Virus record (IMG/VR): IMGVR_UViG_3300009181_000066
Location: 6,276-70,275 of that record
Length of the DNA stretch: 64,000 nt
Source: a virus
Strand: one strand, 5' to 3'
A program made the position numbers and the translations under genes. Shown here one piece after another: positions 5,476 through 62,966 of the stretch; position 1 is the first letter of the stretch; each line of letters starts with the position of its first letter. The notes below the pieces were generated by a model. The model worked only from the letters and a program-made list of their open reading frames with translations, was not told the origin of the DNA and ran no database searches.

Positions 5476-8400
5476 ATGGCATCAAGTAACAAAGTATTCG
5501 TTTCACCTGGAGTATACACTTCAGAGAGAGATTTAACATTTGTGGCACAAAGTGTAGGGGTTACAACATTAGGTATTGTTGGAGAAACTCTACAAGGACC
5601 GGCTTTCGAACCAATATTCATCAGAAACTTTGATGAATTCCAAGTTTATTTCGGGGGTACAAGTCCTGAGAAATTTGTTAACACTCAAATTCCAAAATAT
5701 GAAGCAGCGTACATCGCTAAATCATATTTATCACAATCAAACCAACTTTTCGTAACAAGAGTATTAGGACTATCAGGTTATGATGCGGGTCCATCTTGGT
5801 CTATTACCACTATCGGTAATATAAACCCATCAACATTAGGTGCTACCGGTAATACTGGTCCTGTTTATGTAAACTTTACAGGTACAACAGGTAACAGTGG
5901 AAATGTAGTTATCACTTCAGTACCAGCAGCATTAAGTTCTGTATTTTATTCAACATACTCTACAGATACTAATGGTTCATCAACCATTGATTTAGATTTT
6001 AGAAAGTCGATTGTTGATCAAATTAATTTATATTCCACATCGTCCTCAACTTCGGCAACTACTTCGTATTTTTGGGGTTCAGTTAGTGGAGGAACTTTAT
6101 CAGATATTACAGGAGATTCTTTAAATACTGTTACTACTTTGTCAAATGTTTTAAGTGTTGATAATGTTAATTTAACAAATGCAGATTTGTCATCATACAA
6201 AAATGATGCATGGTACTACTCATTATTTAACTACGCATCGGGAGATTATAGTGGTTTTGGTTTTGGAGCATCTTTATCATCAATATCAGCAATAACGGCA
6301 TCTGTTTATTCAGGTTCAATGGCCGTTTATTTAACAAATTATTCAGGAACTGCATATTCTGATTATGATAACTTAGTAGTTGCAACCCTTAGATCAAGAG
6401 GTCTTTCCGAATATAATAGTCAGCAAAAAGGACCTAATTATGAAGTAACAGGAAAAACAGATGTTACATTAATAACCACAGGGTCATATTCTGCAGTTTC
6501 AGAAAATCCACTTTCAACGTTTGTTGTTTCTGGGGTTTCTTCAGATGGAGACACATTTAATTTTGAAACAAGTTTGCAATCAACTGATGTAAATTCAATC
6601 TCAAACGTTTTTGGTAGATCAAACTTTGGTAAAGATAAAGAAGAAGTTCCATTATTTGTTGAGGAGGTTTATTACACATTATTACTTAATGGATACAGAA
6701 ATGGTAAAATTAGAGGTATTAACGGATCTTTAGTTTCTACTTTAGGTGCTAGATCATTAGAAACTGATTCAATTGGTTTTTATCTTGAGCAATACCAAAC
6801 ACCTGAAACTCCTTACATTGTTTCTGAACTTAGAGGTAATAAAACTTACAAATTATTTAAGTTTAGATTAATTTCTGATGGTAATGCAGCAAACAGATTA
6901 GTTAAACTTTCTATTGGTAACGTATCATTTGCTAACGGAACATTTGATTTATTTATAAGAGATTACTTTGATACAGATAGAAATGTTGTAGTACTTGAAA
7001 GTTTTACAAATTGTTCAATGGATCCAACATTAAACAATTATGTAGCAAACAAAGTTGGTACAGCAAATGGTGAATTTGCACTTAAATCTAAATTTATAAT
7101 GTTAGAAATGAGTGAGGAAGCACCATCAGATGCACTTCCTTGTGGTTTTGAAGGTTACATTTCAAGAGAATACGATACTGCAACACCTCCGTTTGTAAAT
7201 TATAAAACAAAATATTTGAAAGCGGGTGATGTTATTTATAACCCACCATTCGGATCATCTTCAGGTGGAGATAATACAGTTATTTCAAGTGGAGAAAATC
7301 CAAGATTTGCATACTTAGGTATTTCAAATATCACGGGTTATGATTCAGATTTCTTCCAATATAAAGGTAAACAACTTCCGGCAAATTTAGGAACTGACAC
7401 TGTAGGTATTGATTGGGGTTATATAACTAAAGGTTTCCACTTTGATAGTGGGGCAACTGTTGTAACAATCACATCAGGACCGACATCAGGACAATCAGCG
7501 TACGAAGTAGGTGTTACATCATTTAGATCTGAACCTTCAGAAAATGATGACGCATACTACAAACTTAACACTCGTAAATTTACATTACTATCTTACGGAG
7601 GGTTTGATGGTTGGGATATCTATAGAGAATATAGAACTAACGATGACAGATTTATCTTAGGTGCTAGTGGTTATAAGTTTGGTGCGGAAGCGTCAATTAC
7701 TTATCCTACTGCAACAGGATGGGGAGCATTTAAACAAATCTCAGGACCTAACCAAGAAGTGTGGGGTAATACTGATTACTACGCATACCTTTGGGGACAA
7801 AAAACATTGGCTAACCCTGAAGCGGTTAACATCAATGTATTTGTTACTCCTGGTATTGACTATGTAAACAACTCAAACTTAGTTGAGGAAGCGGTTACAA
7901 TGATAGAAACAGACAGAGCTGATTCAATCTACATCTGTACTACACCTGACTTTGATTTATTCTCACCAACCCTTGATCCGGTAGATACTAACACTATCTA
8001 TCCTCAAGAGGCGGTAGATAATTTAGAATCGACAGGTTTAGATTCTAACTACACTGCAACTTACTACCCTTGGGTACTTACAAGAGATAGTGTAAATAAT
8101 ACTCAAATCTACTTACCAGCAACGGCTGAAGTTACAAGAAACTTAGCGTTAACTGACAACATCGCATTTCCTTGGTTCGCATCAGCGGGTTACACAAGAG
8201 GTATTGTGAATTCAATTAAAGCACGTAAAACTTTAACTCAAGAAGATAGAGATACTCTTTACAAAGGAAGAATCAATCCAATTGCAACTTTTAACGATGT
8301 GGGTACAGTAATTTGGGGTAACAAAACTCTTCAAGTTAGACAATCGGCACTTGATAGAATCAATGTTAGAAGATTGTTGTTACAAGCTCGTAAATTGATT

Positions 8401-19409: not shown

Positions 19410-19414
19410 TAACT

Positions 19415-45776: not shown

Positions 45777-46906
45777 TGGATGCAATAAAATATTCCATAG
45801 TTATATCTCCTGAAAATGTCTCGGAAGATATAAGATTTTACCCATATAGTGGTTCCTACTATACTGAGTCTTGCGGAATCCCGACAGAAGAAAATAAAAC
45901 TTACAATTTTGGGTTATATTCTGATTTTACAAGTGTTTTAAGTGGAGGTACTAATGGTACGTCATTATTAACTGGGTTAACTGTTCCTATACTTTTTACA
46001 CAATCTATTAATGATTTAGGTTATTATTCAGAATTTGATGGATTTATTTTACAAAAAAATGTTGTAACTAATTTTTTATACTCTGGAGATGTTACAAACA
46101 TTTATGAAGTTACTTTATACAATACATCCGGAAGTCAATATATGTCATTTTTAAAGTTATCTTCATATCAAGTAGATTGGGGAGATGGATCTCAACCGGA
46201 TAATTTAACGTTTACAAATCAGACTGCGACCCATTTATACCCTAATGTACCGTCAGGGTATACAATTAGCTTAAAACAAACAAATCCCTGGGGAACCACT
46301 ACCATAAGTAAAAAAATATCATTACCAAACACCGGTGTAACTGTTAATAATTTAAATGGTGAGATATTTTTTACTCCACAAGGGGGTAGTTGGTCCGGAA
46401 TCCCATTAAGTTATGAATATATCTATAGTGGTGATTCGGGTTATGAAATGTCACAATACGTTAGTGAAGAATATACAACAGTACCGTTTGTTATATCTGG
46501 ATATACCACTTCCAAATTGTCAGATTTAAGAAGATATGGGCCGAACCCATACACCATAGGGTATATTCAGTATATTAAAGGAAGACCATTAGGTCAAGTA
46601 ACTGAAATGACACCTGATTATACCGCATATACTATAAATGATGTCAATTATTATGATTTAACAGATGGTAGAACATTTTATATTGCCGAATCATCGGGAA
46701 TAACATATAACGATTTTACATTTTCAGCGCTTACTAAAGATGAATATTTATTAGATTTTGTTATGGCTCCTGAAATACAGTCTGGGGTTTATATTGAAAG
46801 AGGAAAGTATTCGGGATTTGAACCGCTACAAAGATTAGGTGAGGTTGATAATTTTGGTGATCTTAAAAGGTATGGTTATGGATATTTTAAAATTAATACC
46901 ACATAA
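45776..46906 (+). CDS. Structural protein with PKD-like domain
   Basis: YQVDWGDGS...THLY....YTISL. Confidence 0.55.
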   Translation: MDAIKYSIVISPENVSEDIRFYPYSGSYYTESCGIPTEENKTYNFGLYSDFTSVLSGGTNGTSLLTGLTVPILFTQSINDLGYYSEFDGFILQKNVVTNFLYSGDVTNIYEVTLYNTSGSQYMSFLKLSSYQVDWGDGSQPDNLTFTNQTATHLYPNVPSGYTISLKQTNPWGTTTISKKISLPNTGVTVNNLNGEIFFTPQGGSWSGIPLSYEYIYSGDSGYEMSQYVSEEYTTVPFVISGYTTSKLSDLRRYGPNPYTIGYIQYIKGRPLGQVTEMTPDYTAYTINDVNYYDLTDGRTFYIAESSGITYNDFTFSALTKDEYLLDFVMAPEIQSGVYIERGKYSGFEPLQRLGEVDNFGDLKRYGYGYFKINTT

Positions 46907-46939: not shown

Positions 46940-47848
46940 ATGGCATTAGGAACTTACGGAATAAATAGACCTGCTGACGTATCACCTGAGGATGTTGAAA
47001 TACTTTTACATTACACAGCTTCAAGGGATGTTACAAACAACTTTGTTTTAAAAAAATTAAACGCTTCAAATATTTTAACACCGTATTTTCATAATGGTGA
47101 AACCGGAGGTAATGCAAATGTTGAAATTTTAGGCGGTCTTTATAATTTAAAATTACCAGCATCTGAATTCACTAGTTTAGGGATTTATACTCTATATATA
47201 AGACCTGCCGAAATAAGAACTACAATATTGGATTGTGGGGTGTTATCATCAATACCGAATGTTAAAGGAATTGTTATAGACATAAATCAAGTACCCTCTC
47301 AATATAGAAATAAGTTTGTAAATCAAGGACTTGTTGGTTTTAGAGTTGAATATTTAAATTCTGATGGAACAAAAATCCCTAATTTTTATAGAATTGTAAC
47401 ATCATCTTTCTTTTGTGAACCTGTAGTTTCTAATCAAACAAACACATCACAAAAAGCGATTAGATATAGATACGTGAATGGAAGTACCGATTTAATATTT
47501 TGTACATTATCACCTTCTTCTTCACCTACAAATAAACCTGATGTGATACCTTTTATTGGCCAACCAAATCAGAGTATTATTGTGACTAATACTTTTTTTA
47601 ACCCAATAACTATAGATATTCAGATGGCTGAACACGATATTGATACTTTAGCAATTGCCCTTTATGGTAATCAAACTAAAAGTGTTGATGATGGTATCTA
47701 CACTCTTTATGATAGTGCTGGTAATATCTATAAACAATATAACTTGTTTGAAATTAGAGATAACTTTAATGAGTTATTATATGAAGTTAGACAAGACAGA
47801 GGAACTAATATAGACTTCAGTAAAAACTTCACAAACATTATTAGTTAA
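46940..47848 (+). CDS. Putative baseplate structural protein
   Basis: TATTTAT upstream; TAATG coupling to the next gene. Confidence 0.5.
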   Translation: MALGTYGINRPADVSPEDVEILLHYTASRDVTNNFVLKKLNASNILTPYFHNGETGGNANVEILGGLYNLKLPASEFTSLGIYTLYIRPAEIRTTILDCGVLSSIPNVKGIVIDINQVPSQYRNKFVNQGLVGFRVEYLNSDGTKIPNFYRIVTSSFFCEPVVSNQTNTSQKAIRYRYVNGSTDLIFCTLSPSSSPTNKPDVIPFIGQPNQSIIVTNTFFNPITIDIQMAEHDIDTLAIALYGNQTKSVDDGIYTLYDSAGNIYKQYNLFEIRDNFNELLYEVRQDRGTNIDFSKNFTNIIS

Positions 47849-50820
47849 TGGCAAAGAAAAAATATTTTTATCCACCTGTACCACCCTCAGGATCTCAGAC
47901 ATTTTCTAACGAATTAGTCGGGTTACAACTCGTGCAAGGAGGTGGACTTACTATGGGTAATTTTGAATTTACAAGTGCTATATTTGAAAAAAGTGATAGG
48001 AAGTTTGATACGGGGGTTTTTTCTCAACCATACAATCTATCAAATTTAAACATTGCTAGTATTGAACAAAGTAAGTTATTAGTTCAAAAAAATTTCCAAG
48101 TATATCCTAATTTTGATATTTCACAAATAACTAGTTTTTCATTATATGGGTCTTTACAAAAAAGATTAGAAACGTCAATAACTAAAGTTATTAATTATTT
48201 TCCTGCATCTATTTTGGTTAGAAAAAATATAGGAACAGGGTATAGTGCGTTAACGGCAAATAATATTCAATATAGTAATATTGACAATGAAACCACATTT
48301 ACAATAAACGTTAAATATTTAACAAACCCATTTGATATTGATTATACTGTAAACGCATCTCAAAACATACGATTTAGTCCAATTAAATTAAGTGAATATA
48401 GGGATTTAACATCTAATTATAAAAAATATGCATTATACGTTGAAAGTCCTAACAATCAAGAGTATAAAATTATTTATTTTGAACCGTCGGCGACATTTAG
48501 TGAGGGGAATTTAACATTTATTGTTGAAGGGAATCCATTTTCAGGACAAACGGCATTTACTGAAACATTAATTATAAAACCAAATAATGAAAATACTGAA
48601 AAAATTTTTAATGAAAGTTTTGATGAGGTAGAGGATTTTATTTTAAATAGACAGGTGTTTCCTAAATACACCGCAACGTTTCAATATCCTGATTATGATG
48701 TTGACGGAACATATTCATTAAATGTAAAAAGTGTGACTTGGCCGTTAGGGGATGAATGGAATTTAGATATACAGTCAGTGTCATTTGAGAATTATTTAAC
48801 GGAAATACAAAACATTGCGGTACTACTTGATAGGTATAAAACCAATCTAATATCTAGGTTTTTAACTACCGGGTCTTTAAAAGATTTTGACACTCCTGAA
48901 CAAAAAATGGAAAAGGTGTTACAAATTTATGGTAGAAGTTTTGATGAGACCAAAAAATTTATAGATTCATTGGCTTATATGAATTCTGTTAATTATATTG
49001 TAGGTAATGATATACCCTCACAATTATTAATAAATTTAGCACAAACAATCGGATTTAATAGTAACGTTTCACCAATTACGAATGATCAGTTTTTAGGTAC
49101 CGTGTTTTCAACGGAAAATACTTCTGATTATGAAGGGATGTCAAAACCTATGACACCTACTGAGTTAAACTACCAGTTTTATAGGAATTTAATATTAAAT
49201 GCCGCTTATCTATTTAAATCTAAAGGTACCCGAAGATCAATTGAATTTATATTAAGAATGGTTGGAGCCCCCGACGCATTAATTGAATTTAATGAAAATA
49301 TTTATTTGGCCGATGGTACTATAAATTTTGATGATTTTAAAGATCAATATATTTGTATATCGGGAAGTACGTTATTAGTTGAAAATACAGTATTAGATCC
49401 TACGGTGACTTTTAGTATACAGGGGACAATGTATACCGGTTTTACGGTTTCAAATACTGTTCAGACAGTGACCGCAACCTTTGATGATTTTCCGATATAT
49501 GAAAGTGGATACCCAAAAACGGTTAAAGATAAACCGGATTACTTTTTCCAAAAAGGTGCTGGATGGTTTGAACAAACACCTGAGCATACGTCAGAAGAAG
49601 TTATTGATAATGAAAATTCAGTATTTAGTGGAAATACCGTTTCTTTGGTTACTAAATTTAAACCTTTTACGTATGGTCAAGATTGGCTTGATAGATTTAG
49701 AAAGTTTCCATTTATGACAAACGTTGGTTACAATTTAGTTAGAACGGTGGATAACACAAAATCTTGGCCAACTAACCAAGTGGGTCTTAGAAAAAACGGT
49801 TCAGTAACTGCTCCAACATATTATAGAATTGAAGATGATAGATTAGCGATTAATGTTAAAAACATTGATCTTTATTTAAATATGGGTCAGGGAATTACTT
49901 ATGACGTTTGGGAACAATCCGTATTGTATAACTACCCAATACCAAGTACAGGGTTAACTGCTCCATATCCGAGTCCTGGTGATACTGATTGGACTGTCAT
50001 AAACCCTAAACCCGATCAAAAAACGTTTTTTGAATTTGCTCAAACATTTTATAATAATTTAATTAACGTTAGAAACAGACAATACATAAGTGACGGTAAA
50101 ACAGGAGGGTATCCTGCATTACAATCAATTTTTTGGAAGTACATTCAAAGTGAACAAGCTATGAATATACCATCAAATAAATTTACTTATCAAAAAATGA
50201 TTGATTTTACATTAGCACTTGGTGATTATTGGGTGAGACTTGTAGAACAATTTGTTCCTGCCACTACTATTTGGAATACGGGTCAAAAAATGGATAATAG
50301 TGTTTTCCATAGACAAAAGTTTGTTTGGAGAAGACAAAGGGGGTGTAGTTTTGTCCCTGTTAATTGTATTCCTTGTACGTTTAATGGTCAACCATTTGGT
50401 TATGATTGTATTGATCAAACGTTAATCTGTAGTTTAGATATTGGACAGAATTATGGAGCCACTACGTTAAGTGAAGCGTTAAATAATTTGATTAGTGAAC
50501 AAGGATATATTCAAAATCAGTGTGACTTAAACGGAATGAAAAGTTATTGGTATATTGATGTAAGACTTGATGATGTAACTCTAATTCAAGAACAATTTTA
50601 TACTGGTTATGGGAGTGTGGACTATCCAACACAGTCAACTATTTTTAATTCAATAAACGAAAAACTTGAAGGTTTATATGTTTATGGGTTAAACTATTAT
50701 TTTGCGGGTAGCTCATTAGTCATTAGTAATAGTAGTTGTTACGATGATTTTACAAATAAAAAACTGTATTTAAATATTGGGATTATGATTGATATAAACT
50801 GTAATAATGACGGAGAATAA
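47848..50820 (+). CDS. Baseplate wedge protein (P2 gpI / T4 gp7-like core)
   Basis: LL..LA...G, YLFKSKGTRRSIEFIL..VG, RLVEQFVPATT. Confidence 0.7.
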   Translation: MAKKKYFYPPVPPSGSQTFSNELVGLQLVQGGGLTMGNFEFTSAIFEKSDRKFDTGVFSQPYNLSNLNIASIEQSKLLVQKNFQVYPNFDISQITSFSLYGSLQKRLETSITKVINYFPASILVRKNIGTGYSALTANNIQYSNIDNETTFTINVKYLTNPFDIDYTVNASQNIRFSPIKLSEYRDLTSNYKKYALYVESPNNQEYKIIYFEPSATFSEGNLTFIVEGNPFSGQTAFTETLIIKPNNENTEKIFNESFDEVEDFILNRQVFPKYTATFQYPDYDVDGTYSLNVKSVTWPLGDEWNLDIQSVSFENYLTEIQNIAVLLDRYKTNLISRFLTTGSLKDFDTPEQKMEKVLQIYGRSFDETKKFIDSLAYMNSVNYIVGNDIPSQLLINLAQTIGFNSNVSPITNDQFLGTVFSTENTSDYEGMSKPMTPTELNYQFYRNLILNAAYLFKSKGTRRSIEFILRMVGAPDALIEFNENIYLADGTINFDDFKDQYICISGSTLLVENTVLDPTVTFSIQGTMYTGFTVSNTVQTVTATFDDFPIYESGYPKTVKDKPDYFFQKGAGWFEQTPEHTSEEVIDNENSVFSGNTVSLVTKFKPFTYGQDWLDRFRKFPFMTNVGYNLVRTVDNTKSWPTNQVGLRKNGSVTAPTYYRIEDDRLAINVKNIDLYLNMGQGITYDVWEQSVLYNYPIPSTGLTAPYPSPGDTDWTVINPKPDQKTFFEFAQTFYNNLINVRNRQYISDGKTGGYPALQSIFWKYIQSEQAMNIPSNKFTYQKMIDFTLALGDYWVRLVEQFVPATTIWNTGQKMDNSVFHRQKFVWRRQRGCSFVPVNCIPCTFNGQPFGYDCIDQTLICSLDIGQNYGATTLSEALNNLISEQGYIQNQCDLNGMKSYWYIDVRLDDVTLIQEQFYTGYGSVDYPTQSTIFNSINEKLEGLYVYGLNYYFAGSSLVISNSSCYDDFTNKKLYLNIGIMIDINCNNDGE

Positions 50821-53510
50821 TGGCTTGTGTTTCAGGTTTAACAAATGGGGTATTTAGTTACGTTGATTGCTGTGGGATATTACAGACCGGAGTATCTTTA
50901 GGTCAAAGCATATGTTTAGACGAAGCATTTACTGGTACTTCATTTGGTGTTTATATTGCTTCAGGACAAACTTGTACTCAAAACTGTAACCAGGGTACGT
51001 TAAGTTATAGTTTTCAAGTTACGGGTGTTTGTGATACATCTTACGGGCAGATAATATTTACACCTTCTGGTGGTATACCTCCATATACGATAGATCCTGT
51101 AACACCTACCGGAACTACATTAACTGCACAAACAAGTAGTGGGGATATCACCTTTACTGGTTTAACAGGTGGGACTTATGTATTCCGTCTAAATGATTCA
51201 CAAGGGTTACAAAACAATGAATTATATATTAATACAATAATATCAAATTGTTTTGAAGCTAACGTATATGGGGTTTCAGGATCAACTTGTGGTTTAAGTA
51301 ATGGATATATTAACATAACCGCAACGACAAGCGCGTCTCCATATACTATTATTGTTTATAAAGACGGAGGTGTATTTAATGTATCAACAGAAGCGACATT
51401 ACCTGTAACATATTCTAATTTACCTTCAGGAATTTATTATGCAACGGTTTTTGACTATGGGTCAGTGACGGCAAATACTGAAAATTTTGTAATAGATGAA
51501 AGTGTTGGGGTTGATTTTGGTTTTTGGAAAGTTAACACATCGACTTGTGTTATTGATAAAGGTAAACTTGCGGTAACGGGTTTAACAGGTACTGGTCCGT
51601 ATACTTTTTTATGGAGTAATAATGAAACAACCCAATTAGTTACGGGTCTTACACAAGGTACATATAGTGTTACTGTGACGGATGCGTTAGGATGTTCAAC
51701 CACAAAGTCTGAACTTATTGGAACTGCAGATCCTATAGGTCTTGGGTTTTTGACTGCAGTTAATCCGTCTTGTTTCTCAAATGATGGGTCTTTAACTTTT
51801 ACAATAACAGGAGGTACGGTTCCTTTTTATTATTCTGCTTCTACCTATGAAGTGGGGTATACATTATCTGATACGTTTACAATATCTAATTTGGCGGGTG
51901 GGGCGTACCAAGTATTGGTAAGAGATGCTAATTTTTGTGAAGTTATTTTAAATGGTACCATAAATACCGTTAATGGTTTTAATGTTGTTGAAATTGCAAC
52001 TACACAATCATCTTGTAATCAGTCTAGTGGGAAGATTGGAGTAACTATAGAAGGTGCGAACAATTTTTATACGTACGCAATTTCAGGATTAACCACAAAT
52101 TACACCAATGGAATAACCACTCAAAGTCAAACACATAACTTTACTAATTTATCAAACGACACTTATTTATTAGTTATATCAGGATCGGGTACAAATTGTA
52201 GTTATAGTGAATTTGTTACAATCGCTTCAGTTGATAAGTTTCAAGTAAATTATACTGCAACAACCGCAAGTTGTGGGTTAAATAACGGGGTTATTAGTGT
52301 TGAGGTAGGGACTGGTTATACGGGAGTATTAGATTATGTTTTAAGTGACGGACAATCAATTATAGATACGCCATCTACCGCTTACACATTTAGTAATTTA
52401 GTTGAGGGTCAATATACGTTAAGTGTTACCGATAATGAAAACTGTACGGTATCTAAAGATTTTGAAATAACAACAACAGGGGAATTAGCCTTTATGGTTA
52501 ATGCTGTTGATTGTACTGGGGTAAATGATGGGTCGGCAAGTGTTTTAATAAATAAAGGGGAACCTACATTTGCATATGAATGGTCCGACAATGTGCCAGG
52601 AAACCCAACAGGGTCTACGGTTACGGGTTTATCGGGGGGTACATATTCGGTAATAGTTACGGATAGTAGTGGGTGTAGTAATAAACAAATATTTGATATA
52701 TTGTGTGGAAATAGTAATATTGTTTCTTATCAAATTGTCAATCTTTGTGTTAATGAGTTTAATACCCAATCAGGAAATAAAAGAGGTTTTTCTGAAATGT
52801 TAAATGAAGGGTTTTTAGATTTAACAAATGAATACACAAATTGTATTTTAAGTTCCGCAACATTTAATTGTAATATAGACATTAATGGAACCGCTTATAC
52901 CCAATCTTTTTACACAACGAATGAATTTAGCGATGTCCCTAGTGATGCTTTATGGCAAAGTACTATTGAAGGTATATTATCATCAATAACTGAAATAGGT
53001 TCTTACAATGTTAATTTACTTAATAACACATTACAAATTAATTCTAATTGTGATGGGGATAGTGATCCTCTTGGGGGTAAACCAATTACCATTGAATTAG
53101 AGATTGATTATACATTAAACTGTGAGTCTTCAGGGGATACAATGTGTTTTAATTTTTCAAGTAGTACTTATGTATCAAATGTTACAGCATCGCCGGAAGG
53201 TATAAATAATAATAGACCATACTATACATTTCCAAGAGGTGGAATTACTTGTTATGTGTATTGGGATGATGTATCTAATGTTTGGGTATTTTCTAAAACT
53301 TTAGGTGGAGATATAAATAATAGTTTTTCGACACTTGATAATTTTTATAATCCAAATCCGGTAAGTAATATGACATATACATGGCAAGACGGACCTGAAA
53401 GTGGAACATTTAAAATGAACACATCTACAAGTGGAATGTGTCCATATAAACAATTCCAAAACCTGACAAATTTTGAATTTATGACAGGTGTACCATATGA
53501 ATTTCAATAA
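50820..53510 (+). CDS. SprB-repeat fibre/adhesin-like virion protein
   Basis: Seven-ish Ig-like repeats: C...G.I.....GG..PY.Y.W....GL..GTY.V.VTD..GC; ends KQFQNLTNFEFMTGVPYEFQ. Confidence 0.8.
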   Translation: MACVSGLTNGVFSYVDCCGILQTGVSLGQSICLDEAFTGTSFGVYIASGQTCTQNCNQGTLSYSFQVTGVCDTSYGQIIFTPSGGIPPYTIDPVTPTGTTLTAQTSSGDITFTGLTGGTYVFRLNDSQGLQNNELYINTIISNCFEANVYGVSGSTCGLSNGYINITATTSASPYTIIVYKDGGVFNVSTEATLPVTYSNLPSGIYYATVFDYGSVTANTENFVIDESVGVDFGFWKVNTSTCVIDKGKLAVTGLTGTGPYTFLWSNNETTQLVTGLTQGTYSVTVTDALGCSTTKSELIGTADPIGLGFLTAVNPSCFSNDGSLTFTITGGTVPFYYSASTYEVGYTLSDTFTISNLAGGAYQVLVRDANFCEVILNGTINTVNGFNVVEIATTQSSCNQSSGKIGVTIEGANNFYTYAISGLTTNYTNGITTQSQTHNFTNLSNDTYLLVISGSGTNCSYSEFVTIASVDKFQVNYTATTASCGLNNGVISVEVGTGYTGVLDYVLSDGQSIIDTPSTAYTFSNLVEGQYTLSVTDNENCTVSKDFEITTTGELAFMVNAVDCTGVNDGSASVLINKGEPTFAYEWSDNVPGNPTGSTVTGLSGGTYSVIVTDSSGCSNKQIFDILCGNSNIVSYQIVNLCVNEFNTQSGNKRGFSEMLNEGFLDLTNEYTNCILSSATFNCNIDINGTAYTQSFYTTNEFSDVPSDALWQSTIEGILSSITEIGSYNVNLLNNTLQINSNCDGDSDPLGGKPITIELEIDYTLNCESSGDTMCFNFSSSTYVSNVTASPEGINNNRPYYTFPRGGITCYVYWDDVSNVWVFSKTLGGDINNSFSTLDNFYNPNPVSNMTYTWQDGPESGTFKMNTSTSGMCPYKQFQNLTNFEFMTGVPYEFQ

Positions 53511-53529: not shown

Positions 53530-54225
53530 ATGGCAACTTTAACATCAATATCTTTAGTAACCCCATCAGCTATTACGGAAACTTCACAAATTCACGTTGT
53601 AATTACGGGGGACACGACTCAAGGTAATCCTGATGGGTCTTCATATAAAGCAAATCTTTCAGATTTAAGAACGGTTTTTTTAGATACATTTATAACAGGG
53701 TTTACCTACAATAACGCTAACACACTAACAATTGCAAGAAATCAAGGGCAACCTAATTTGACTGCAACAATCAACACGATGACTGGTCTAACAATAAATG
53801 GGGCATTGTCTGCTACTACGATTTATTTAAGTGGTCAACCTGTTTCAACAACAACTTGGGTTACAAGAACAGATGTGAGTTCTCAAATATATAATATTCC
53901 TTCCGTAAATTATGGAATAATAAATAGATACACATTAAATGTGTATTCTGAATATGTATTACCTGCAACATGTGAAATAGGTGATGTTATAGAAATTATT
54001 GAGGATAAAGCAGGAAGTTCTAAAACCAGAGTTAGAGCAAATACAGGTCAAACAATTAGGGTGAGTAGTTATGGAACGACAGGGACTGCGGGATATTTTG
54101 ATACCGTAAATACTGACAATGTTGCAATAAAGCTTGTTTGTATTACTGCAAATTCTAAATGGGCGGTAGTTTCATATTTTTCCGATTTTAATAATGGGTC
54201 TGGATCAGTACCAACAATAGTGTAA
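53530..54225 (+). CDS. Short tail fibre/appendage protein (paralogous N-terminus with 54841)
   Basis: N-terminal IHVV.TGDTTQ...GSSYKA; C-terminal LPATCEIGDVIEII...AIKLVC....W fibre-type domain. Confidence 0.6.
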   Translation: MATLTSISLVTPSAITETSQIHVVITGDTTQGNPDGSSYKANLSDLRTVFLDTFITGFTYNNANTLTIARNQGQPNLTATINTMTGLTINGALSATTIYLSGQPVSTTTWVTRTDVSSQIYNIPSVNYGIINRYTLNVYSEYVLPATCEIGDVIEIIEDKAGSSKTRVRANTGQTIRVSSYGTTGTAGYFDTVNTDNVAIKLVCITANSKWAVVSYFSDFNNGSGSVPTIV

Positions 54226-54519
54226 ATGGCTAGTGTTTTAAACATATCAAACATATCAGGAGGCACACCACCTTATAGTTTTTATGTTTGTGATGAAAAC
54301 GGAAACAACTGTTCTTTATTAGGAACTACCGCAAGTGCATATACATTAAATGCCTTTTATTCAACTGCAAACACATTACTAATAAAAGTGATAGATAGTA
54401 ACTCTTGTCAATTTTTCACTTTAATTTCTTGTCCTATTGATAGTTGTATAATTTTAACTGAAGACTTAGATAAAATCACGACAGAAGATGGGGACTTCAT
54501 TGTATTTTGTGATTTTTAA
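54226..54519 (+). CDS. Single SprB-like-domain mini-protein with C-terminal ILTED.D.ITTEDG tag
   Basis: SGGTPPYSFYVCD...C...IKVIDSNSC; tail CIILTEDLDKITTEDGDFIVF. Confidence 0.65.
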   Translation: MASVLNISNISGGTPPYSFYVCDENGNNCSLLGTTASAYTLNAFYSTANTLLIKVIDSNSCQFFTLISCPIDSCIILTEDLDKITTEDGDFIVFCDF

Positions 54520-54530: not shown

Positions 54531-54818
54531 ATGATAGTACAAATCACAGGATCTACGAGCGGACAATCACCATTTGATGTTTTTTTGTGTGATTCAACAA
54601 ACACCTCCTGTTTTTATGTTTCAGGGATTACATATCTAACACCCGTTGTTGTTTTTGATACAAATAACTATTTTCCAAATGAAAACGTTCTATATTTAAA
54701 AGTTATTGACTCTCTCGGTTGTACATTTATTGAAAAGTTAGATTGTGGGGAAGGAAAAATGTACCAAGACGGAATATATGTCAAATTTATGGACGGAGTT
54801 GGTTATTATTTCCAATAA
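54531..54818 (+). CDS. Single SprB-like-domain mini-protein with C-terminal Q...FM.G..Y.FQ tag
   Basis: SGQSPFDVFLCD...C...LKVIDSLGC; tail KMYQDGIYVKFMDGVGYYFQ. Confidence 0.65.
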   Translation: MIVQITGSTSGQSPFDVFLCDSTNTSCFYVSGITYLTPVVVFDTNNYFPNENVLYLKVIDSLGCTFIEKLDCGEGKMYQDGIYVKFMDGVGYYFQ

Positions 54819-54840: not shown

Positions 54841-55821
54841 ATGCCAACTTATCAGTTTCTTACGGATAGATCATTAGCTCAATCTACGGCAATAACGCCG
54901 ACAACTATTATACATATTGTAACCACTGCGGATACAACCCAAAGTGTTTATGGGTCATCATATAAGGCAACAATACAACAAGTTTCAGATGCTATCTTAA
55001 CAGGGTCTACGAACATATATAATTCAGATGGTACTTTAACAGGGAATAGAAATGTTAATTTTACAGGAAGTAGATTACAATTTTCAGGAACAAATAGTAG
55101 TACAACTATAGGTTTAACATTAAGGGCTAGTTCTGGTTCTGGAAACCGTTTTGCTAAATTAAGTGCAGTAAATGGGTCACTACAAAATAACATAGATGTG
55201 ACCATTGCGGGTACATCAATTAACTCTTCGGATACTGGATATACAAACTCAGTCAGTACAGATTCGGTAGGTGTTAATATTACCGCTTCTGATTATACAG
55301 GGTACACAAATACAATAGATCTCAATTCGGGTGGAATAATGATTAATTCAGAATATTATTTACCGCCTACGGATGGAACTACAGGGCAAATTATGACAAC
55401 AGATGGTAGCGGAACTACTAGTTGGCAAAGTATGTATGGGTATCAATACTATAGTGCGGTAACCATTACAAGTGCTCAAACACTCTCAATTGGGTCATCA
55501 CCTGTTGAAATCTTACCAGCACCTGGTGCTAACAAATATTATGATTTTAAAGTATTTTTTGAATACATATTTAATACTACCTCATATGTCAGTACAGGTA
55601 AAATGGAATTACACGATAGTACTGCAAAACGAGTGTCAAATCGATTTGATTTTAATGGTCAATTATCCAATAATATATTGATTAGTGATATGAACGCGGC
55701 GAGTGAATTGATGCCAATCAATAGTAAACTTGAGTTTACAACATCTGATGGGACTAACCCAACACTTGGTGATAGTTCATTTAAAGTAAAAATATATTAT
55801 AATATTATTGATTTTGGTTAA
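54841..55821 (+). CDS. Tail fibre/appendage protein
   Basis: N-terminus paralogous to 53530; NIYNSDGTLTGNR and LP.TDGTTGQIMTTDGSG..SW fibre-shaft motifs; distinct C-terminal head domain. Confidence 0.65.
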   Translation: MPTYQFLTDRSLAQSTAITPTTIIHIVTTADTTQSVYGSSYKATIQQVSDAILTGSTNIYNSDGTLTGNRNVNFTGSRLQFSGTNSSTTIGLTLRASSGSGNRFAKLSAVNGSLQNNIDVTIAGTSINSSDTGYTNSVSTDSVGVNITASDYTGYTNTIDLNSGGIMINSEYYLPPTDGTTGQIMTTDGSGTTSWQSMYGYQYYSAVTITSAQTLSIGSSPVEILPAPGANKYYDFKVFFEYIFNTTSYVSTGKMELHDSTAKRVSNRFDFNGQLSNNILISDMNAASELMPINSKLEFTTSDGTNPTLGDSSFKVKIYYNIIDFG

Positions 55822-57200: not shown

Positions 57201-58796
57201 ATGGCTACAGTCTATCTTGAACGTTGTTGCGATAATACTATAAACTATGAGGTAAATGGTTGGACGGGATCCACATCATTGGGTAATGTATTTTCAATTA
57301 CTGGAGATACCGGTATTATAAATGGTTGTTATACAATTGTTTCATCATTAGTTGCTCCTGTTGTTACTTTCGATGGTATTGAAACATCCGTTGTTGATTG
57401 TAACGACCCATTATGTATTGATTGTTGTGATACTGAATTATGTTTTAATGTAAATTTAATATCATATTCCGGGTATAATGGAACATATGAATTAACGGGT
57501 AATTATAATGGAAATTATTATTGGACTGGAGGTACAAGTCCCGGATATTTATTTTTTGATAATATAAAATGGTGTTTAAGTTCATCTTTGGGGGGTACTT
57601 GCGATTTTTATGGATCAAACCCAACAAGTTCATTATGTCCCGATCTTGATGAAAGTTTATTAACTATTGGTGTATGTGTACCAACACCGACACCTGTTGA
57701 TCCTTGTTATGGGTTAGATTTTGATGTGTTATTAGAATGTAATATCCCGACGGCGACTCCGACACCAACACCGACACCCACACCTACACCGACACCAACA
57801 CCGACACCTACAAATGTTTGTGATCCTTTTTCTGCTACGGTTAGTGTGACTGCGGTAACAATCACGCCAACACCGACTCCAACACCAACGCCAACACCAA
57901 CGGTTACAAGACCTATTATAATTTCTGGAAATTCAGTAAATTTCATAATAGATGATGGTGTGTTTGTATGTTCAAATGTAAAAGAATTGGTTGATTGCGA
58001 ATCTAATGAAAAATATTATATATCAGGAGTATTAACGTATACTGGATCACCTATAAGTATTGGAACTACTTTCTTAGCTTTATTTGGTACCTCAGGTTCA
58101 AGTCAAGTTAAATGTGTTACTTATACTAACACTGTTGATGGTTCGCCAAATCAGGCGTTAAATTCAGTTGTTGAGGTTTATTCGGGAGGATGTGAAAATT
58201 GTAATTTACCAACACCTACGCCAACACCGACACCCACGCCGACGCCGACACCAACACCTACACCGACACCAACACCTACTTTGGTACCTAATACTAAATT
58301 TGTGTTTACAAGTTGTACGGACACGTCAATGATTGTTCAATCTACATATCAACCATCAAATGTTATTGAAGGTGATGTCATCAAAGATCTTTCTGGTAAT
58401 TGTTATACTTATGTTGGATCATTTGTCGGTTATGTACCACCATCAGGGTATATTGTTGTTAATGATGATGTATTTACAGCAACTACTGCAACAACATACA
58501 CTACTTGTGTTAGTTGTTTAACACCTACACCAACTCCGACACCAGCATATAAAGAATGGGTAGGAATGGCAGAATTTACCATTTCTTGTCCTGTTTGTGA
58601 ATTAACCGATTATGGTGTTCCTTATACTTTTTACACATCTGCAAGTGTTAGTTCATTAACGGACGGAACTGAGATTTATGATAATATGAATCTTACAGTA
58701 CCGACACTTGTGACTTATATTAAATACGGAAATAAAATATACATAAATAATGATGGTACAATAACTGAACATTGTACCGTGAATGGAAATTGTTAA
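57201..58796 (+). CDS. Mucin-like, Cys-rich virion appendage protein with (Pro-Thr)n linkers
   Basis: Five PT tracts separating small Cys-rich domains; about 28 Cys by hand count; TATTTAT upstream; no signal peptide. Confidence 0.75.
   Translation: MATVYLERCCDNTINYEVNGWTGSTSLGNVFSITGDTGIINGCYTIVSSLVAPVVTFDGIETSVVDCNDPLCIDCCDTELCFNVNLISYSGYNGTYELTGNYNGNYYWTGGTSPGYLFFDNIKWCLSSSLGGTCDFYGSNPTSSLCPDLDESLLTIGVCVPTPTPVDPCYGLDFDVLLECNIPTATPTPTPTPTPTPTPTPTPTNVCDPFSATVSVTAVTITPTPTPTPTPTPTVTRPIIISGNSVNFIIDDGVFVCSNVKELVDCESNEKYYISGVLTYTGSPISIGTTFLALFGTSGSSQVKCVTYTNTVDGSPNQALNSVVEVYSGGCENCNLPTPTPTPTPTPTPTPTPTPTPTPTLVPNTKFVFTSCTDTSMIVQSTYQPSNVIEGDVIKDLSGNCYTYVGSFVGYVPPSGYIVVNDDVFTATTATTYTTCVSCLTPTPTPTPAYKEWVGMAEFTISCPVCELTDYGVPYTFYTSASVSSLTDGTEIYDNMNLTVPTLVTYIKYGNKIYINNDGTITEHCTVNGNC
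57680..58545 (+). repeat. (Pro-Thr)n coding tracts at about 57680, 57746-57810, 57864-57910, 58208-58280, 58520-58545
   Basis: CCNACN hexamer runs with mixed third positions, so selection appears to act on the protein rather than reflecting recent slippage. Confidence 0.9.
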
Positions 58797-58803
58797 ATAA
58801 AAT

Positions 58804-59025
58804 ATGTCAGTAATAGTAAATATAGATTCAATAATATCGGGGACGAGTCCATATGATGTTTGGATTTGTGATAAATGTGATAGTTCTGGTGTTTGCCAGT
58901 ACATTGCCACGTTTACTGATGCTGAATTACCCTATAGTTTTACACTTCCATCTGTTTATGAAACTTACCCATCGTATGTGGTAAAAGTAATTGATGATAA
59001 TGGATGTGAGTATTGTTCGGTTTAA
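58804..59025 (+). CDS. Single SprB-like-domain mini-protein (third paralog, no C-terminal tag)
   Basis: SGTSPYDVWICD..D...C...VKVIDDNGC. Confidence 0.65.
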   Translation: MSVIVNIDSIISGTSPYDVWICDKCDSSGVCQYIATFTDAELPYSFTLPSVYETYPSYVVKVIDDNGCEYCSV

Positions 59026-59089
59026 AATAAAAATAAGTTAATATATCCTTTGAGTTAAAATAAAATATTATTAAGAGTAAATAACATAA

Positions 59090-60715
59090 ATGAGTCAATT
59101 AAGCGGAAATAGTTGTAATATTATAACACTTCTACCATTAGGGTTAGATTGTGAAAGTATTAGTGCGAATACTCCATACACTACAGATGGTTTAATAACT
59201 TTATTTGTGACAGGAGGTACTCCACCATACACAATAAATTGGAGTAATGGGTCTCAAGGGTCTTATTTATTTAATTTAGCACCTGGTGATTATACTGCAA
59301 CCGTTATTGATTATTATGGTGATTTTACAGCAACTACTACTTGTAGTGTTGGATACGAAAACTTTTATTTAGAAAAATTCCAAAATTGTTTTAATAGTGC
59401 AACTACGGTTTATTATGTTGCAAATATGCCATCTACGTTTATTACTGATAAAGTATATAGATTACAAGGACAAACGGATTGTTGGAAAAGTAAAGGATTA
59501 GAATTAACATCGGGACAAACTTATGTGGACTCATATGCGGTTGTAACTGCAGGACCTTACCCTAATTGTAAGGGATGTTTGCCTATTGACCCTGTAATTC
59601 CAGTTAAACCTGAAAAGTTATGTTTGGAATATAAAAGTGGAGGGGTAGTTCAAACAACTACGTATATACAATTTAGTTCGGGAGGTACTATAAATAATAA
59701 AAACTCATGGACAAGTGTTACGCCTTCATATGTAATTTATTATAATAGTGGGTCGACAAATTGGCAAATAAGTGGATGGACAGGATCAGGAAACCCAACA
59801 CAAGTCAATACCGTTTCATCTCCATTAGGTTCTTGGGTTATTTATGGAGGATCAGGTAACATCAATGTCGTTGGGGGTATTTGTGTTATTAAACCTAATA
59901 TGTTTATTAAAACAAATAGTGCGACTTGTTCTGACGTAAGCAATGGTTCAGTGGCGATAACTGCAATAGGGGGTACTCCGCCTTATGAGTACTCTTTAGA
60001 TGGGGTTTTATATCAACCTTCAAGTATGTTTATTGGTCTTTCGTCTGGAAACTATACTGCATACGTTAAAGATAGTTCAGGAGCAACAAACTCACAAAGT
60101 TTTACAATAAACGCATCATCTACTCAAACAACATATACAGTAAACCTTTACCAACAACCAATTGCAACACCAATATATAACAACACGTCTAATTACACAC
60201 AAATAACATATAATTGGTATGCTGATGTTACACCACCTCTTCCATCTGGAAAAACAATAACTTTTGATATAATACAAAGTGTGAATAGTGAAAGTAGAAG
60301 TGGGTATTATAACTCTACCGAAGTATTTCCTACGTTACAATATTCATCAATAACGGGTGTTACTGGTGGAGGGTCAATTACTGCGACCACAACCACAACA
60401 CCGGTAATAACATCTCCTCCGCCGACAACTTGTAAAAATACAATTTCAACGACCGCATATACTAACACGTACAAGGCGTTAATTACTGGAATTGGAAATA
60501 TATACGGACAAATAAATAAAAAAATAACAACACCAAACGGAACGGTAGGGGGTTGTCCAACATACGGATTGTTAAACGATACAATAAACATCGCAAACGT
60601 AAAATTGGTTAATGCTAGTGTTTGTGAACTTATAAACACTAATGTTTCACCATTACAATTAAACTTAAATAGGACGGGTGAGGTTGTATTTTTGGGTAGT
60701 GGGTTGTCGGGTTAA
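59090..60715 (+). CDS. Mosaic fibre/adhesin-like protein with SprB repeats and Cys modules
   Basis: TGGTPPYTINWSNG...LAPGDY..TV.D and GGTPPYEYSLDG...GLSSGNY...VKDS.G. Confidence 0.7.
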   Translation: MSQLSGNSCNIITLLPLGLDCESISANTPYTTDGLITLFVTGGTPPYTINWSNGSQGSYLFNLAPGDYTATVIDYYGDFTATTTCSVGYENFYLEKFQNCFNSATTVYYVANMPSTFITDKVYRLQGQTDCWKSKGLELTSGQTYVDSYAVVTAGPYPNCKGCLPIDPVIPVKPEKLCLEYKSGGVVQTTTYIQFSSGGTINNKNSWTSVTPSYVIYYNSGSTNWQISGWTGSGNPTQVNTVSSPLGSWVIYGGSGNINVVGGICVIKPNMFIKTNSATCSDVSNGSVAITAIGGTPPYEYSLDGVLYQPSSMFIGLSSGNYTAYVKDSSGATNSQSFTINASSTQTTYTVNLYQQPIATPIYNNTSNYTQITYNWYADVTPPLPSGKTITFDIIQSVNSESRSGYYNSTEVFPTLQYSSITGVTGGGSITATTTTTPVITSPPPTTCKNTISTTAYTNTYKALITGIGNIYGQINKKITTPNGTVGGCPTYGLLNDTINIANVKLVNASVCELINTNVSPLQLNLNRTGEVVFLGSGLSG

Positions 60716-60743
60716 AAAACTTAATTAAATATATTTATGAAAT

Positions 60744-62966
60744 ATGGCATATATAATTAAAAATACTGCAGGTCTTATCAACACAACGTTGACCGATGCT
60801 GCAAGAAAAAGAATTTCACAAGGTAAATTTGATATTGCATATTTCCAAGTTGGAGATAGTGAGGTGAGTTATAATGGTATTAACAACATTGACCCGACGA
60901 GTTTAAATGTACTTATGCCACAATTTAATGCTCAAAACACGACATTAATTCCTGAAAAAAATAGAATGCACGTTAAATATCCACTATTTGTGGATTCAAC
61001 ATCGGGATCCACTTATGGTATTCCTGTTGATGCGTCGTATTTTGATTACATTTATAATACTGCGGCACCAAGAGGGTTTTTTACGGGAAATACTAATAAT
61101 TATAGTGCTTTTACTACAAGTGCGATTACAATAAACCCAAATTTTATAATTCCTAATTCTGCATTTACATCAGGGAACACGATAGTAATTGAAAGAAGCG
61201 ACATTAACCCTATTGTTTCGGGATCGGTTACAAGTGGGATGGTAATGACATTATTTACGACAACTGACATAACACCATTTACAGCTAACACACCTATGTT
61301 TACGTATTTTGTGGTTGGTGTAACAGGAAATACTTCTGGAGATACTACCGTTACAATAAAAGTTGACAGAAACTTACCTGACTTTAATACATTAGGGTTT
61401 ACAGGTAATAGTAGAGTTTTATTTTACCCACCTAATATGACAAGTTTATATGATTCAGTAACACCTGAACCATATTGGGCGACAAACGTATTTAATTTTG
61501 AATCAAATTGTGATATATCACAGGCCGATGTGAAAGTATGGAATATGAATATTCCTTGGACTGAATCACCTGCTGGGTTATTTAACAATACTTATCAAGA
61601 CTACAATTATTTTGGATCAACAGGGTATTGTGGGTCTAAAGAGTATTTTGGATACACAACAAATGATGGTCAAAATGATACTAGTTATTCTTATTTTTAT
61701 AATTCATTTGATGAAATTGTAGAAGTCGAAGCAAAAGACCAAAAAGCAATTGCAATACTTCATTATACTAATCAATCTATTGATAATTTTTATGGTGAAA
61801 AATTCGCATTTCAAGAATATGACGTTTCGGATCCGGGAGCGACTGGACAAGCAAGAAACTTTAAATTATCTCTTCCATGGCTTATGTGGCATAAAAACCC
61901 AACCGGCACAATAGGAGAGGAGTTTTTTGTTGATCCATCGGGTTTCACAAGTATTGATTTATTTCAAGTTCAATATATCAAATCAAATAAGACCTCATCG
62001 TTTAATGATCCGGGGTTGAGATATTATCATTTATGGGATACACACGCTAATGGTGATGGGTACCCAAGTAGAGTTGGTAAAGTTTTTCCTGATTTAAAAA
62101 TGATTATTTTTGATGATGATGAAATTGTCGCATCACTTAATTATAAAACTAATAGATCTTGGACTCTTCCCGCACCTAAATTGGGTCTTATAACTCCTAA
62201 CACATTTGGAGGGGTATTGGGAGGAACAACGGGATTATTAACAGGAAGTACCGATACATTATTTTTAACATATAGATTTAATAATAGTGCATTTACTAAC
62301 TCACTTCATTGTAATTATTATTCAACAATTAAAAACTTTACAAATGAATGTGCTCCTGACGGAACATTAGTTGCAGGATCATCTGATGTTATAGTTAGAT
62401 TTGGAAATGAATTTCCGTTTTTAGTGTCTAATTTAACGACAACACCTTCAGGATTTACGGCAAATAATATGAAGGTATTGGCTCAAATAGTACCAAGTGG
62501 TACAACAAGACCAAGTGCGAATCAATGGAAAGAAATTGATATGTATTCACAATTATCGGGTTCGTCTGTTAATGGTAATTTAACAGTAACAGGTATCACA
62601 GGAACTACACTTCAAATAACAAAGTCAATGTACGACTCAGCACCTTTTTATCAATTATCTAATTACATAACATTACCACAACTTAATGAGTCAGGAACAA
62701 CATTTAATTTTGGATCCGAATATTATTTTTATGGGACATTAAAAACCGACATTCAAGCAACAATTTATGTTATGAATTACCTATGTAATTTAGGTCAAAC
62801 ACAGTTTCAAGATTCATCTAATCCAACTTGGAATAATACCGTACCACCTTATGTTACGGAAGTGGCTCTTTACAATTCAGATAAAGAGCTTATGGTTATT
62901 TCTAAGATACAATCGCCTGAAAAAAGACAAGGTATTCAGCAGTATCCGATTAAATTAGATTTTTAA
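60744..62966 (+). CDS. Baseplate/fibre attachment protein (gpH N-terminal/DUF3751-like ends with insertion)
   Basis: N-terminal LTDAARKRISQG.F.I.YFQVGDSE and C-terminal YVTEVALYN...ELM.I.K...P..R.....IKLDF. Confidence 0.55.
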   Translation: MAYIIKNTAGLINTTLTDAARKRISQGKFDIAYFQVGDSEVSYNGINNIDPTSLNVLMPQFNAQNTTLIPEKNRMHVKYPLFVDSTSGSTYGIPVDASYFDYIYNTAAPRGFFTGNTNNYSAFTTSAITINPNFIIPNSAFTSGNTIVIERSDINPIVSGSVTSGMVMTLFTTTDITPFTANTPMFTYFVVGVTGNTSGDTTVTIKVDRNLPDFNTLGFTGNSRVLFYPPNMTSLYDSVTPEPYWATNVFNFESNCDISQADVKVWNMNIPWTESPAGLFNNTYQDYNYFGSTGYCGSKEYFGYTTNDGQNDTSYSYFYNSFDEIVEVEAKDQKAIAILHYTNQSIDNFYGEKFAFQEYDVSDPGATGQARNFKLSLPWLMWHKNPTGTIGEEFFVDPSGFTSIDLFQVQYIKSNKTSSFNDPGLRYYHLWDTHANGDGYPSRVGKVFPDLKMIIFDDDEIVASLNYKTNRSWTLPAPKLGLITPNTFGGVLGGTTGLLTGSTDTLFLTYRFNNSAFTNSLHCNYYSTIKNFTNECAPDGTLVAGSSDVIVRFGNEFPFLVSNLTTTPSGFTANNMKVLAQIVPSGTTRPSANQWKEIDMYSQLSGSSVNGNLTVTGITGTTLQITKSMYDSAPFYQLSNYITLPQLNESGTTFNFGSEYYFYGTLKTDIQATIYVMNYLCNLGQTQFQDSSNPTWNNTVPPYVTEVALYNSDKELMVISKIQSPEKRQGIQQYPIKLDF

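Follow-up and report, generated by a model that had tools for sequence, protein, structure and literature searches.

Characterized members of glycosyltransferase (GT) family GT60 are described as polypeptide α-N-acetylglucosamine (GlcNAc) transferases: Gnt1 is cytoplasmic and acts on a hydroxyproline of Skp1, and Trypanosoma cruzi TcOGNT1 forms GlcNAc-α-1-O-Thr on mucin-like proteins (PMC6939170, PMC9472816). The known members, Gnt1 of Dictyostelium and Toxoplasma and TcOGNT1, are eukaryotic enzymes of the GT-A type that place the first GlcNAc straight onto a protein side chain, and their acceptors, one Skp1 hydroxyproline or Thr in mucin-like repeats, follow no defined [ST][GA]xT word. A putative phage relative, known from its sequence, is encoded in a 64,000-nucleotide stretch of viral DNA (the window; positions 6,276 to 70,275 of IMG/VR record IMGVR_UViG_3300009181_000066), where it lies inside a block of tail genes whose products are enriched in exactly this word (Ser or Thr, Gly or Ala, any residue, Thr; the motif or word below). 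The enzyme matches PF11397, which we take to be the Pfam counterpart of CAZy family GT60 and which was presumably built on enzymes of the Gnt1/TcOGNT1 type.

Other described systems resemble this locus in part. Bacteroidota possess a general O-glycosylation system that is reported to modify many unrelated proteins at the short sequon (D)(S/T)(A/I/L/V/M/T) (PMC8550257). The Bacteroidota system differs from the present locus in its word, its enzyme family and its compartment: exported proteins are its targets, modified outside the cytoplasm, and virions are assembled within it. Phage-encoded GTs are described as decorating virion proteins of mycobacteriophages, at the C-termini of capsid and tail-tube subunits, with glycans that are thought to act as a shield (PMC12619734). 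The window differs in that its word is dispersed and internal, lies on distal tail proteins and sheath insertions with no copy in the tube, and is accompanied by another enzyme family. The same source describes a lineage of large aquatic phages, with predicted Bacteroidota hosts, that has four core putative glycosyltransferases, in a passage that mentions no motif (PMC12619734). N-x-S/T is the sequon reported for the N-glycosyltransferase (NGT) (PMC10466321). The HMW1C/NGT enzymes, the autotransporter heptosyltransferases and the chlorovirus machinery differ from the present case in residues, linkages and enzyme families, and none uses [ST][GA]xT. In the first two of these systems a soluble transferase recognizes a short word, or a strand-loop-strand element, at many sites of a surface protein before export or assembly, and chloroviruses glycosylate their capsids with virus-encoded machinery at atypical sequons. 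Full-text literature searches returned no report of a phage [ST][GA]xT sequon and none of GT60 enzymes in phages. Virus-encoded, sequon-directed protein glycosylation is a kind already known; a dispersed, sequence-defined phage O-glycosylation signal would be new.

The window covers 64 kb of a 70,275-bp viral contig, has a G+C content of ~31% and carries T4-like replication and tail genes. Copies of the word in each of 39 open reading frames (ORFs, also called here by their first coordinate) were compared with the number expected from composition-preserving shuffles (2000 per protein). Together the 39 ORFs hold 123 copies where 34.8 are expected, and 97 of these lie in 11 distal-tail proteins within 43232-62966, the outer proteins, which add up to 5394 amino acids (aa). 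The expectation for the outer proteins is 16.8 when whole proteins are shuffled, 19.3 when shuffling is confined to 30-residue windows and 19.8 with 12-residue windows, and z is 17.5-19.8 under the three nulls (200 shuffles each). The two local shuffles rule out an artefact of local composition. The remaining 28 ORFs hold 26 copies against 17.6 expected, including eight in the tail sheath and six in a 1659-aa baseplate-region protein for which Pfam and PHROG scans gave no family match (Table 1). Sheath residues 1-720 contain all eight copies of that protein (2.24 expected, P=0.002), and the core at 721-1062 contains none (0.74 expected). Counts are at expectation in the tube (0), the gp6/J-like wedge (0 vs 0.84), a 2151-aa protein (2 vs 2.28), a 2018-aa protein (3 vs 3.1) and 13 replication or enzyme ORFs (5 vs 2.9). 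By phmmer the 11 outer proteins form nine sequence families, in which 54226 pairs with 54531 and 53530 with 54841; 50820 and 59090 have SprB repeats in common. The enrichment is almost certainly real, highly significant and under selection.

Much of this had been anticipated in an earlier note on the same DNA, which read the word as a candidate modification sequon, for instance for O-glycosylation. Its hand count for the 740-aa protein is exactly right, 17 copies in the same words, and its figure of about 20 for the 896-aa protein is close to the 21 found. The recurrence that it saw in 47848, 45776, 53530 and 54841 holds in every case, as do the motifs in sheath insertions and their rarity in the tube, the gp6-like wedge, the 2151-aa protein and the replication enzymes, and the excess persists under shuffling, the check that it proposed, whether global or local. 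Its inclusion of 38250 rests on a marginal excess (P=0.048). Where it spoke of unrelated folds, the comparison, which used sequence only, gives nine families unrelated in sequence. The phrases "virion-wide" and "coating the whole tail" go beyond the data, and the window holds no head genes by which the first could be judged.

Within the outer proteins the word is sharply bounded. Only Ser and Thr are favored at position 1 (47 and 50 copies vs 7.3 and 9.7 expected), only Gly and Ala at position 2 (62 and 35 vs 11.8 and 5.2) and only Thr at position 4 (97 vs 17.0), where Ser (14 vs 13.1) and Val (11 vs 9.1) stay near expectation. Position 3 is free, with charged residues, Ala and Pro rare. Thr stands at +2 after 97 of 211 [ST][GA] dipeptides. 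An unbiased scan of all words of the forms a-b-x-c, a-x-b-c and a-b-c ranks SG.T, TA.T, TG.T and SA.T straight after words of Pro-Thr (PT) linkers, and the same scan over the whole of G001, a 292-kb relative, gives that rank to TG.T, SA.T and SG.T and not to TA.T. The only (PT)n linkers in the window are four runs of 9-25 residues, at residues 183, 222, 337 and 441, that separate the domains of 57201, one of the 11 outer proteins. Permuted and neighboring words show no enrichment in the outer proteins: the reversed word T.[GA][ST] occurs 21 times vs 16.6, [ST][GA].S 14 vs 12.8, [ST][GA].[VI] 22 vs 18.8, [ND][GA].T 8 vs 9.9 and words with shifted spacing 19-22 vs about 17. N-x-[ST] is likewise unenriched there. 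The Bacteroidota word D[ST][AILMVT], from which the earlier note had set this one apart, occurs 15 times in the outer proteins vs 21.2 expected and 54 times in the others vs 48.6. Ser codons inside the word are AGT in 36% and TCN in 62% of cases, compared with 33% and 65% elsewhere. A DNA-level motif is ruled out by these background-like synonymous codons, AGT versus TCN Ser among them, and because codon usage is the same inside and outside the word, the signal acts at the protein level.

The motif is maintained across relatives, although its sites are not. Ortholog sets spanning 26-100% identity retain the enrichment, at 4-10 times expectation down to 30% identity, and orthologs of 46940, 62972 and the GT are essentially motif-free. 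The motif Thr is retained in 73% of ortholog cells vs 51% for other Thr, with corresponding values of 80% vs 60% for position 1 and 75% vs 68% for position 2. Close relatives hold many of the sites at the same positions (40-61 of 66 sequences). Among 18 motif-rich orthologs, chosen for having at least nine copies, 82 distinct sites occur and 36 of them are found in one sequence only; pairs at ~30% identity have 26% of sites in common, and yet each sequence carries 11-25 copies where 1-2.5 are expected. A profile of the 740-aa protein, run against 1.8 billion representatives, matched 812 homologs, and across the best 150 of the 812 the ratio of observed to expected copies is 3.9-6.2 in every block of 25 ranks.

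Other homologs lack the word altogether. Ten full-length homologs of the 740-aa protein have no copy. P0013 aligns with it end to end at 44% identity and has none of its 17 motifs; its loops are mostly N/D-rich instead, and the position-4 Thr is retained at about four sites. At one metagenome locus (L268) none of the seven ORFs of at least 120 aa contains a copy, and four of these are homologs of 59090 or 60744. One metagenome scan gave two motif-less fragments (6.6 and 25.5 kb), whose small size does not allow the presence of a GT to be judged, and in IMG/VR neither P0013 nor a profile of five motif-less sequences recovered anything but motif-rich orthologs. Full-length orthologs without any copy show that the word is dispensable for the fold. 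Whole lineages lack it, and copy number is maintained only in certain lineages. Copy number that is kept in those lineages while the sites move is what a signal recognized in trans should show, and a turn dictated by the fold would hardly account for it.

A 99%-complete relative extends the list of carriers to the head. In the 292-kb G001, 14 of 265 ORFs hold 154 copies where 31.5 are expected, and the remaining 251 hold 70 vs 65.2. The carriers are the tail block, the sheath, a 644-aa protein, a 241-aa protein, the Gp23-like major capsid protein (5 vs 1.1) and its 492-aa neighbor (6 vs 1.06). PHROGs gave no match for four further motif-rich G001 proteins, and NCBIfam gave none for the 644-aa protein. 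Two other G001 proteins were seen in passing. A 282-aa protein (169964-170812, minus strand) has a linker of seven P-TG[TA]T-P units, in which the word is embedded in a PT linker. A 2919-aa protein (181308-190067, minus strand) consists of collagen-like G-T-[SN] triplet runs (GTSGTNGTS...) broken by globular segments, and has 612 copies of the reversed word where 87 are expected and only 18 forward words.

In T4, XacN1 and Mel-JY01 the signal is missing. Fifteen T4 baseplate, fiber, sheath and capsid proteins contain 22 copies vs 19.9 expected, with one vs 2.2 in Hoc; the 399 ORFs of Xanthomonas phage XacN1 (AP018399.1) contain 148 vs 159, with no ORF significant; the Mel-JY01 region contains 19 vs 14.5, and the Mel-JY01 and LR756508 sheath regions have no comparable signal. 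The T4, Mel-JY01 and XacN1 counts rule out a generic feature of tail fibers. The nearest deposited relative of the window's sheath, at 31% identity, is that of a 484-kb uncultured phage (LR756508.1, 206423-208417), which has five motifs where 1.1 are expected. Several S/T/G-rich proteins in related loci have motif ratios of 0.2-1.3. A 357-aa phage protein with an LCIB/C β-carbonic-anhydrase domain (PF18599, E 2e-25) at another related locus (L180:17966-19039, plus strand) has seven motifs vs 1.4.

Placement of the word was viewed in an AlphaFold model of the 740-aa protein built from 39 sequences (predicted local distance difference test (pLDDT) 66.8, predicted template modeling score (pTM) 0.71). 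The model has no PDB fold match (Foldseek, E <= 0.001), and 60744 has no SprB domain. Coil is assigned to 51 of the 68 motif residues (75%), compared with 54% in the confident region, and none of the 17 words lies wholly inside a strand, compared with 15% of background four-residue windows; most appear to abut a strand end. This placement, read from the secondary structure of a moderate model, is compatible with accessible loops without proving exposure.

The candidate modifying enzyme, a GT that the earlier note did not report, lies inside the motif-rich block, between two motif carriers that are encoded on the same strand 90 and 46 nucleotides away. Its Pfam match is strong (E 2.9e-71; 241.2 bits vs a cut-off of 21), with residues 56-295 aligned to profile positions 95-349 of 352. 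The triplet D94-S95-H96 is unchanged in all 15 GT homologs compared, and by likeness to N-acetylgalactosamine (GalNAc) transferases we assume that D-S-H is the catalytic motif. The AlphaFold model of the GT is of low confidence (pLDDT 57.5); its N-terminal half superimposes on the GT-A enzymes TarP, GalNAc-T2, SpsA and K4CP over 112-143 aligned columns at 3.1-5.2 Å. Neither phmmer nor a profile search found a solved relative, and an NCBIfam scan gave no match for the GT, DUF2827, 60744 or 45776.

Eight of the nine motif-rich relatives with a completeness of 52% or more have PF11397, as do all five of those at 90% or more; three fragments of 15-35% completeness, which are uninformative for GT presence, stand outside this count. 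Among 50,697 cultured phage records only four have it. DUF2827 occurs in none of five records tested (four large relatives and XacN1), a weak negative in that the query matched nowhere, and HtrL_YibB occurs in two of the five. The end of the contig (positions 1-591, minus strand) encodes part of a DUF2827 protein (PF10933, E 1e-37). Five contigs of 140-195 kb with GTs 64-67% identical to that of the window are 47-65%-complete fragments and represent no clear independent lineage. In other lineages (L180:11261-17203, plus strand, and also L150, L156 and L210) the GT heads a gene cluster that encodes an FkbM methyltransferase, a PLOD-type GT, a GT10 fucosyltransferase, a CmcI rhamnosyl O-methyltransferase and HtrL_YibB, and by its gene content this cluster resembles a locus for multi-step glycan assembly. 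Close relatives of the window have one HtrL_YibB gene after the GT; in the window nothing of the kind follows it.

A mechanism can be proposed on this basis. The PF11397 enzyme of the window would be made together with the late structural proteins and, in the host cytoplasm, would transfer an N-acetylhexosamine (HexNAc), most likely GlcNAc from uridine diphosphate (UDP)-GlcNAc, to a hydroxyl in the word, most likely that of the invariant position-4 Thr, with [ST][GA] at -3/-2 as the specificity determinant. The sites would lie in loops beside β-strand ends on exposed parts of the virion, namely the distal tail and baseplate proteins and the sheath insertion domains and, in relatives, head proteins as well. 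Transferases and methyltransferases encoded beside the GT in some related lineages may extend the sugar. The outcome would be a glycan coat in which the number of sites is held while single sites come and go. That the word is a signal read by some enzyme is probable. Sequon-directed O-glycosylation by the phage, coating exposed virion parts, is the best explanation for the data, held with evenly balanced confidence, and whether the adjacent GT60-like transferase is the agent and an O-HexNAc the modification is close to a toss-up, if anything a shade under. The sequon claim of the earlier note gains partial support from enrichment that survives local shuffling, from a protein-level signal under selection that is restricted to certain lineages and absent from T4 and other phages, from site turnover and zero-copy orthologs, and from the GT inside the block; XacN1, the SprB copies and the correlative nature of the link to the GT tell against it. 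The broadest version, offered tentatively and with some leaning toward doubt, is that in uncultured freshwater phages that form a large and abundant group a eukaryote-like GT60 enzyme puts O-GlcNAc on the Thr of [ST][GA]xT across the whole exposed virion (fibers, baseplate periphery, sheath insertions and capsid), extended in some lineages to methylated or fucosylated oligosaccharides, with site number under selection and with lineages that have shed the system.

A number of observations weigh against this assignment, the moderate and low confidence of the models of 60744 and the GT among them, and those on the enzyme can be taken together. The co-occurrence of GT and motif is correlative and drawn from related phages that are not phylogenetically independent; the sole PF11397-negative motif-rich record is 63% complete; outside the sublineage of the window the GT is not in the tail block but 100-180 kb away from it; and non-target proteins show no avoidance of the word, as the remainder of G001 illustrates. 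XacN1 and RAS14 have GTs 42-43% identical to that of the window (43% in XacN1), and XacN1 is without motif enrichment. The over-represented words of XacN1 are TPT, PTP, VTP and STP (TPT 314 vs 39.6), and they are possible mucin-like acceptors. Its GT gene adjoins a carbamoyltransferase gene, near GT9 and HtrL_YibB genes. A GT that is found with PT words and without the motif implies that the enzyme family may target PT-rich, mucin-like stretches; the GT may serve PT linkers, or two GT clades may differ in specificity. From here it is a short step to the view that the word is a sequon for some other enzyme or modification (another phage or host transferase, a kinase or the like) and that the GT acts on (PT)n linkers, on another acceptor or on DNA. 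GT60 relatives are reported to modify Thr in mucin-like sequence (PMC9472816), PT words are top-ranked in the outer proteins, in G001 and, massively, in XacN1, whose GT lies next to a carbamoyltransferase and distant from motif-rich genes, and the ~70 kb covered are part of a ~290-kb genome in which further enzymes may lie beyond. On the other hand, PF11397 alone among the transferases tested tracks the motif-rich genomes, the densest carriers in the window lie on either side of the GT, and PT linkers in a single outer protein would be a small target for a gene conserved in the block. The invariant Thr also fits the Thr preference reported for the GT60 family (PMC9472816). A different enzyme or modification is unlikely on balance.

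The word might instead be an unmodified structural element, a lineage-specific strand-end or tight-turn motif of β-rich, partly SprB/Ig-like fiber domains that is selected for folding, solubility or packing and involves no enzyme. The residue at -1 is hydrophobic in 56% of motifs vs 34% of the background, the only extra context detected, and together with motifs that abut strand ends this also fits a structural strand-cap. SprB repeats (PF13573) are present in two carriers, and 11 of the 97 copies, including five of the 21 in 50820, fall in SprB-type signatures (TGGTxPY, TGLTxGTY) and so occupy repeat-fold positions; the positional conservation of many sites in close relatives and XacN1, unenriched in spite of its GT, point the same way. 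However, 86 of the 97 copies lie outside the SprB signatures, Pfam finds SprB in two of the 11 outer proteins and the densest carrier has no such domain. SprB-domain origin was rejected on the 11 of 97 copies; an iterative hidden Markov model search seeded with 54226 found only 54531. The chemistry is also too narrow for a turn, in that Ser or Val cannot replace the Thr and Asn or Asp cannot replace the first Ser or Thr. Orthologs of the same fold manage with N/D-rich loops and no copy, sites turn over at constant density, T4, Mel-JY01 and XacN1 proteins of the same kinds are unenriched, and the word occurs in at least nine sequence-unrelated families as well as in sheath insertions and the capsid. 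Taken with these points, a purely structural role is improbable, to much the same degree as a different enzyme. Far less probable is a word whose unmodified loops bind a ligand or partner such as a host surface polymer, a phage decoration or a chaperone protein: confinement to exposed virion proteins and maintained density would suit it, but four residues with a free third position, spread over that many families, make an unlikely epitope, no candidate partner was identified, and whole lineages do without the word. Chance or a composition artefact can practically be dismissed, since the carriers are indeed S/T/G-rich but z is about 18 even with 12-residue shuffles, permutations of the same composition are unenriched, and S/T/G-rich neighbors in related loci show no comparable excess. 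Sequon-directed glycosylation thus stays the preferred reading at the strength given above.

The motif-rich block belongs to a run of 14 ORFs on one strand (43232-63948), located downstream of the wedge genes. Eleven of these have no or little family annotation apart from the SprB repeats of two, which suggest, as far as such repeats can indicate, a Bacteroidota host. Two ORFs within the block, 46940-47848 and 62972-63577 on the plus strand, are motif-free and are its best conserved members (75-100% and 64-96% identity in relatives); they may act in assembly or be buried in the structure. The other tail genes of the window encode a gp19-like tube and gp25-like and gp6/J-like wedge proteins, and its replication genes encode ribonucleotide reductase, a DnaB-like helicase, gp32, a UvsX/RecA-like protein and RNase H, with a family-B DNA polymerase on the same contig just upstream of the window. 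For the sheath, the closest relatives that are cultured or deposited share only 30-38% identity, and metagenomic relatives are plentiful, on contigs of up to 335 kb. A 959-aa SNF2-family helicase (688-3567, minus strand) has its SNF2 domain split over residues 151-754, and an insert at residues ~181-480 matches Hom_end-associated Hint, homing endonuclease and LAGLIDADG_3 families; the insert looks like an intein with a homing endonuclease.

Table 1. Motif carriers and the candidate transferase in the window (motifs, observed vs expected from shuffles; orthologs, copies vs expected and number of sequences)
Feature	Coordinates	Strand	Motifs	Orthologs	Remarks
Tail sheath, 1062 aa	5476..8664	+	8 vs 3.09		All outside the conserved core, at residues 124-670; large non-conserved N-terminal part; Pfam/PHROG sheath match 721-1060
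1659-aa baseplate-region protein	38250..43229	+	6 vs 2.61	5.7 vs 2.6, n=36	Marginal, P=0.048
571-aa protein	43232..44947	+	5 vs 0.46	3.9 vs 0.6, n=41	
376-aa protein	45776..46906	+	8 vs 0.93	7.6 vs 0.8, n=40	
990-aa protein	47848..50820	+	8 vs 1.26	5.8 vs 1.4, n=45	
896-aa SprB-repeat protein	50820..53510	+	21 vs 4.08	20.8 (mean) vs 4.7, n=41	PF13573, E 2e-14
231-aa protein	53530..54225	+	6 vs 1.35		Related to 54841 (phmmer)
97-aa single-domain protein	54226..54519	+	3 vs 0.21		Related to 54531
95-aa single-domain protein	54531..54818	+	2 vs 0.11		
326-aa protein	54841..55821	+	8 vs 1.82		
Candidate modifying enzyme, 414 aa	55911..57155	+	0		PF11397 "Glycosyltransferase (GlcNAc)"
531-aa protein	57201..58796	+	6 vs 2.23	12.2 vs 2.8, n=44	Four (PT)n linkers
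541-aa SprB-repeat protein	59090..60715	+	13 vs 2.59		PF13573, E 9e-12; phrog_26672, virion structural protein
740-aa protein	60744..62966	+	17 vs 1.98	16.0 vs 1.8, n=65	Densest carrier

Phage virion glycosylation is known from very few cases. In public metagenomes the GT has more than 7000 homologs, named by automatic labels only, and the 740-aa protein has 812 representative clusters. If the proposal is correct, the outer surface of an abundant phage group would be sugar-coated by a readable code, with glycosylation sites predictable from sequence alone. A small soluble enzyme with a four-residue tag would also be a candidate tool for cytoplasmic glycosylation. Even an unmodified word would be an unusually sharp, lineage-specific sequence rule in need of a structural explanation. 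If the word is modified as proposed, it would give bacteriophages their first O-glycosylation code defined by a sequon, its turnover would parallel that of the glycan shields of animal viruses, and the gain, loss and turnover of sites would open to study an arms race with hosts, grazers or defense systems.

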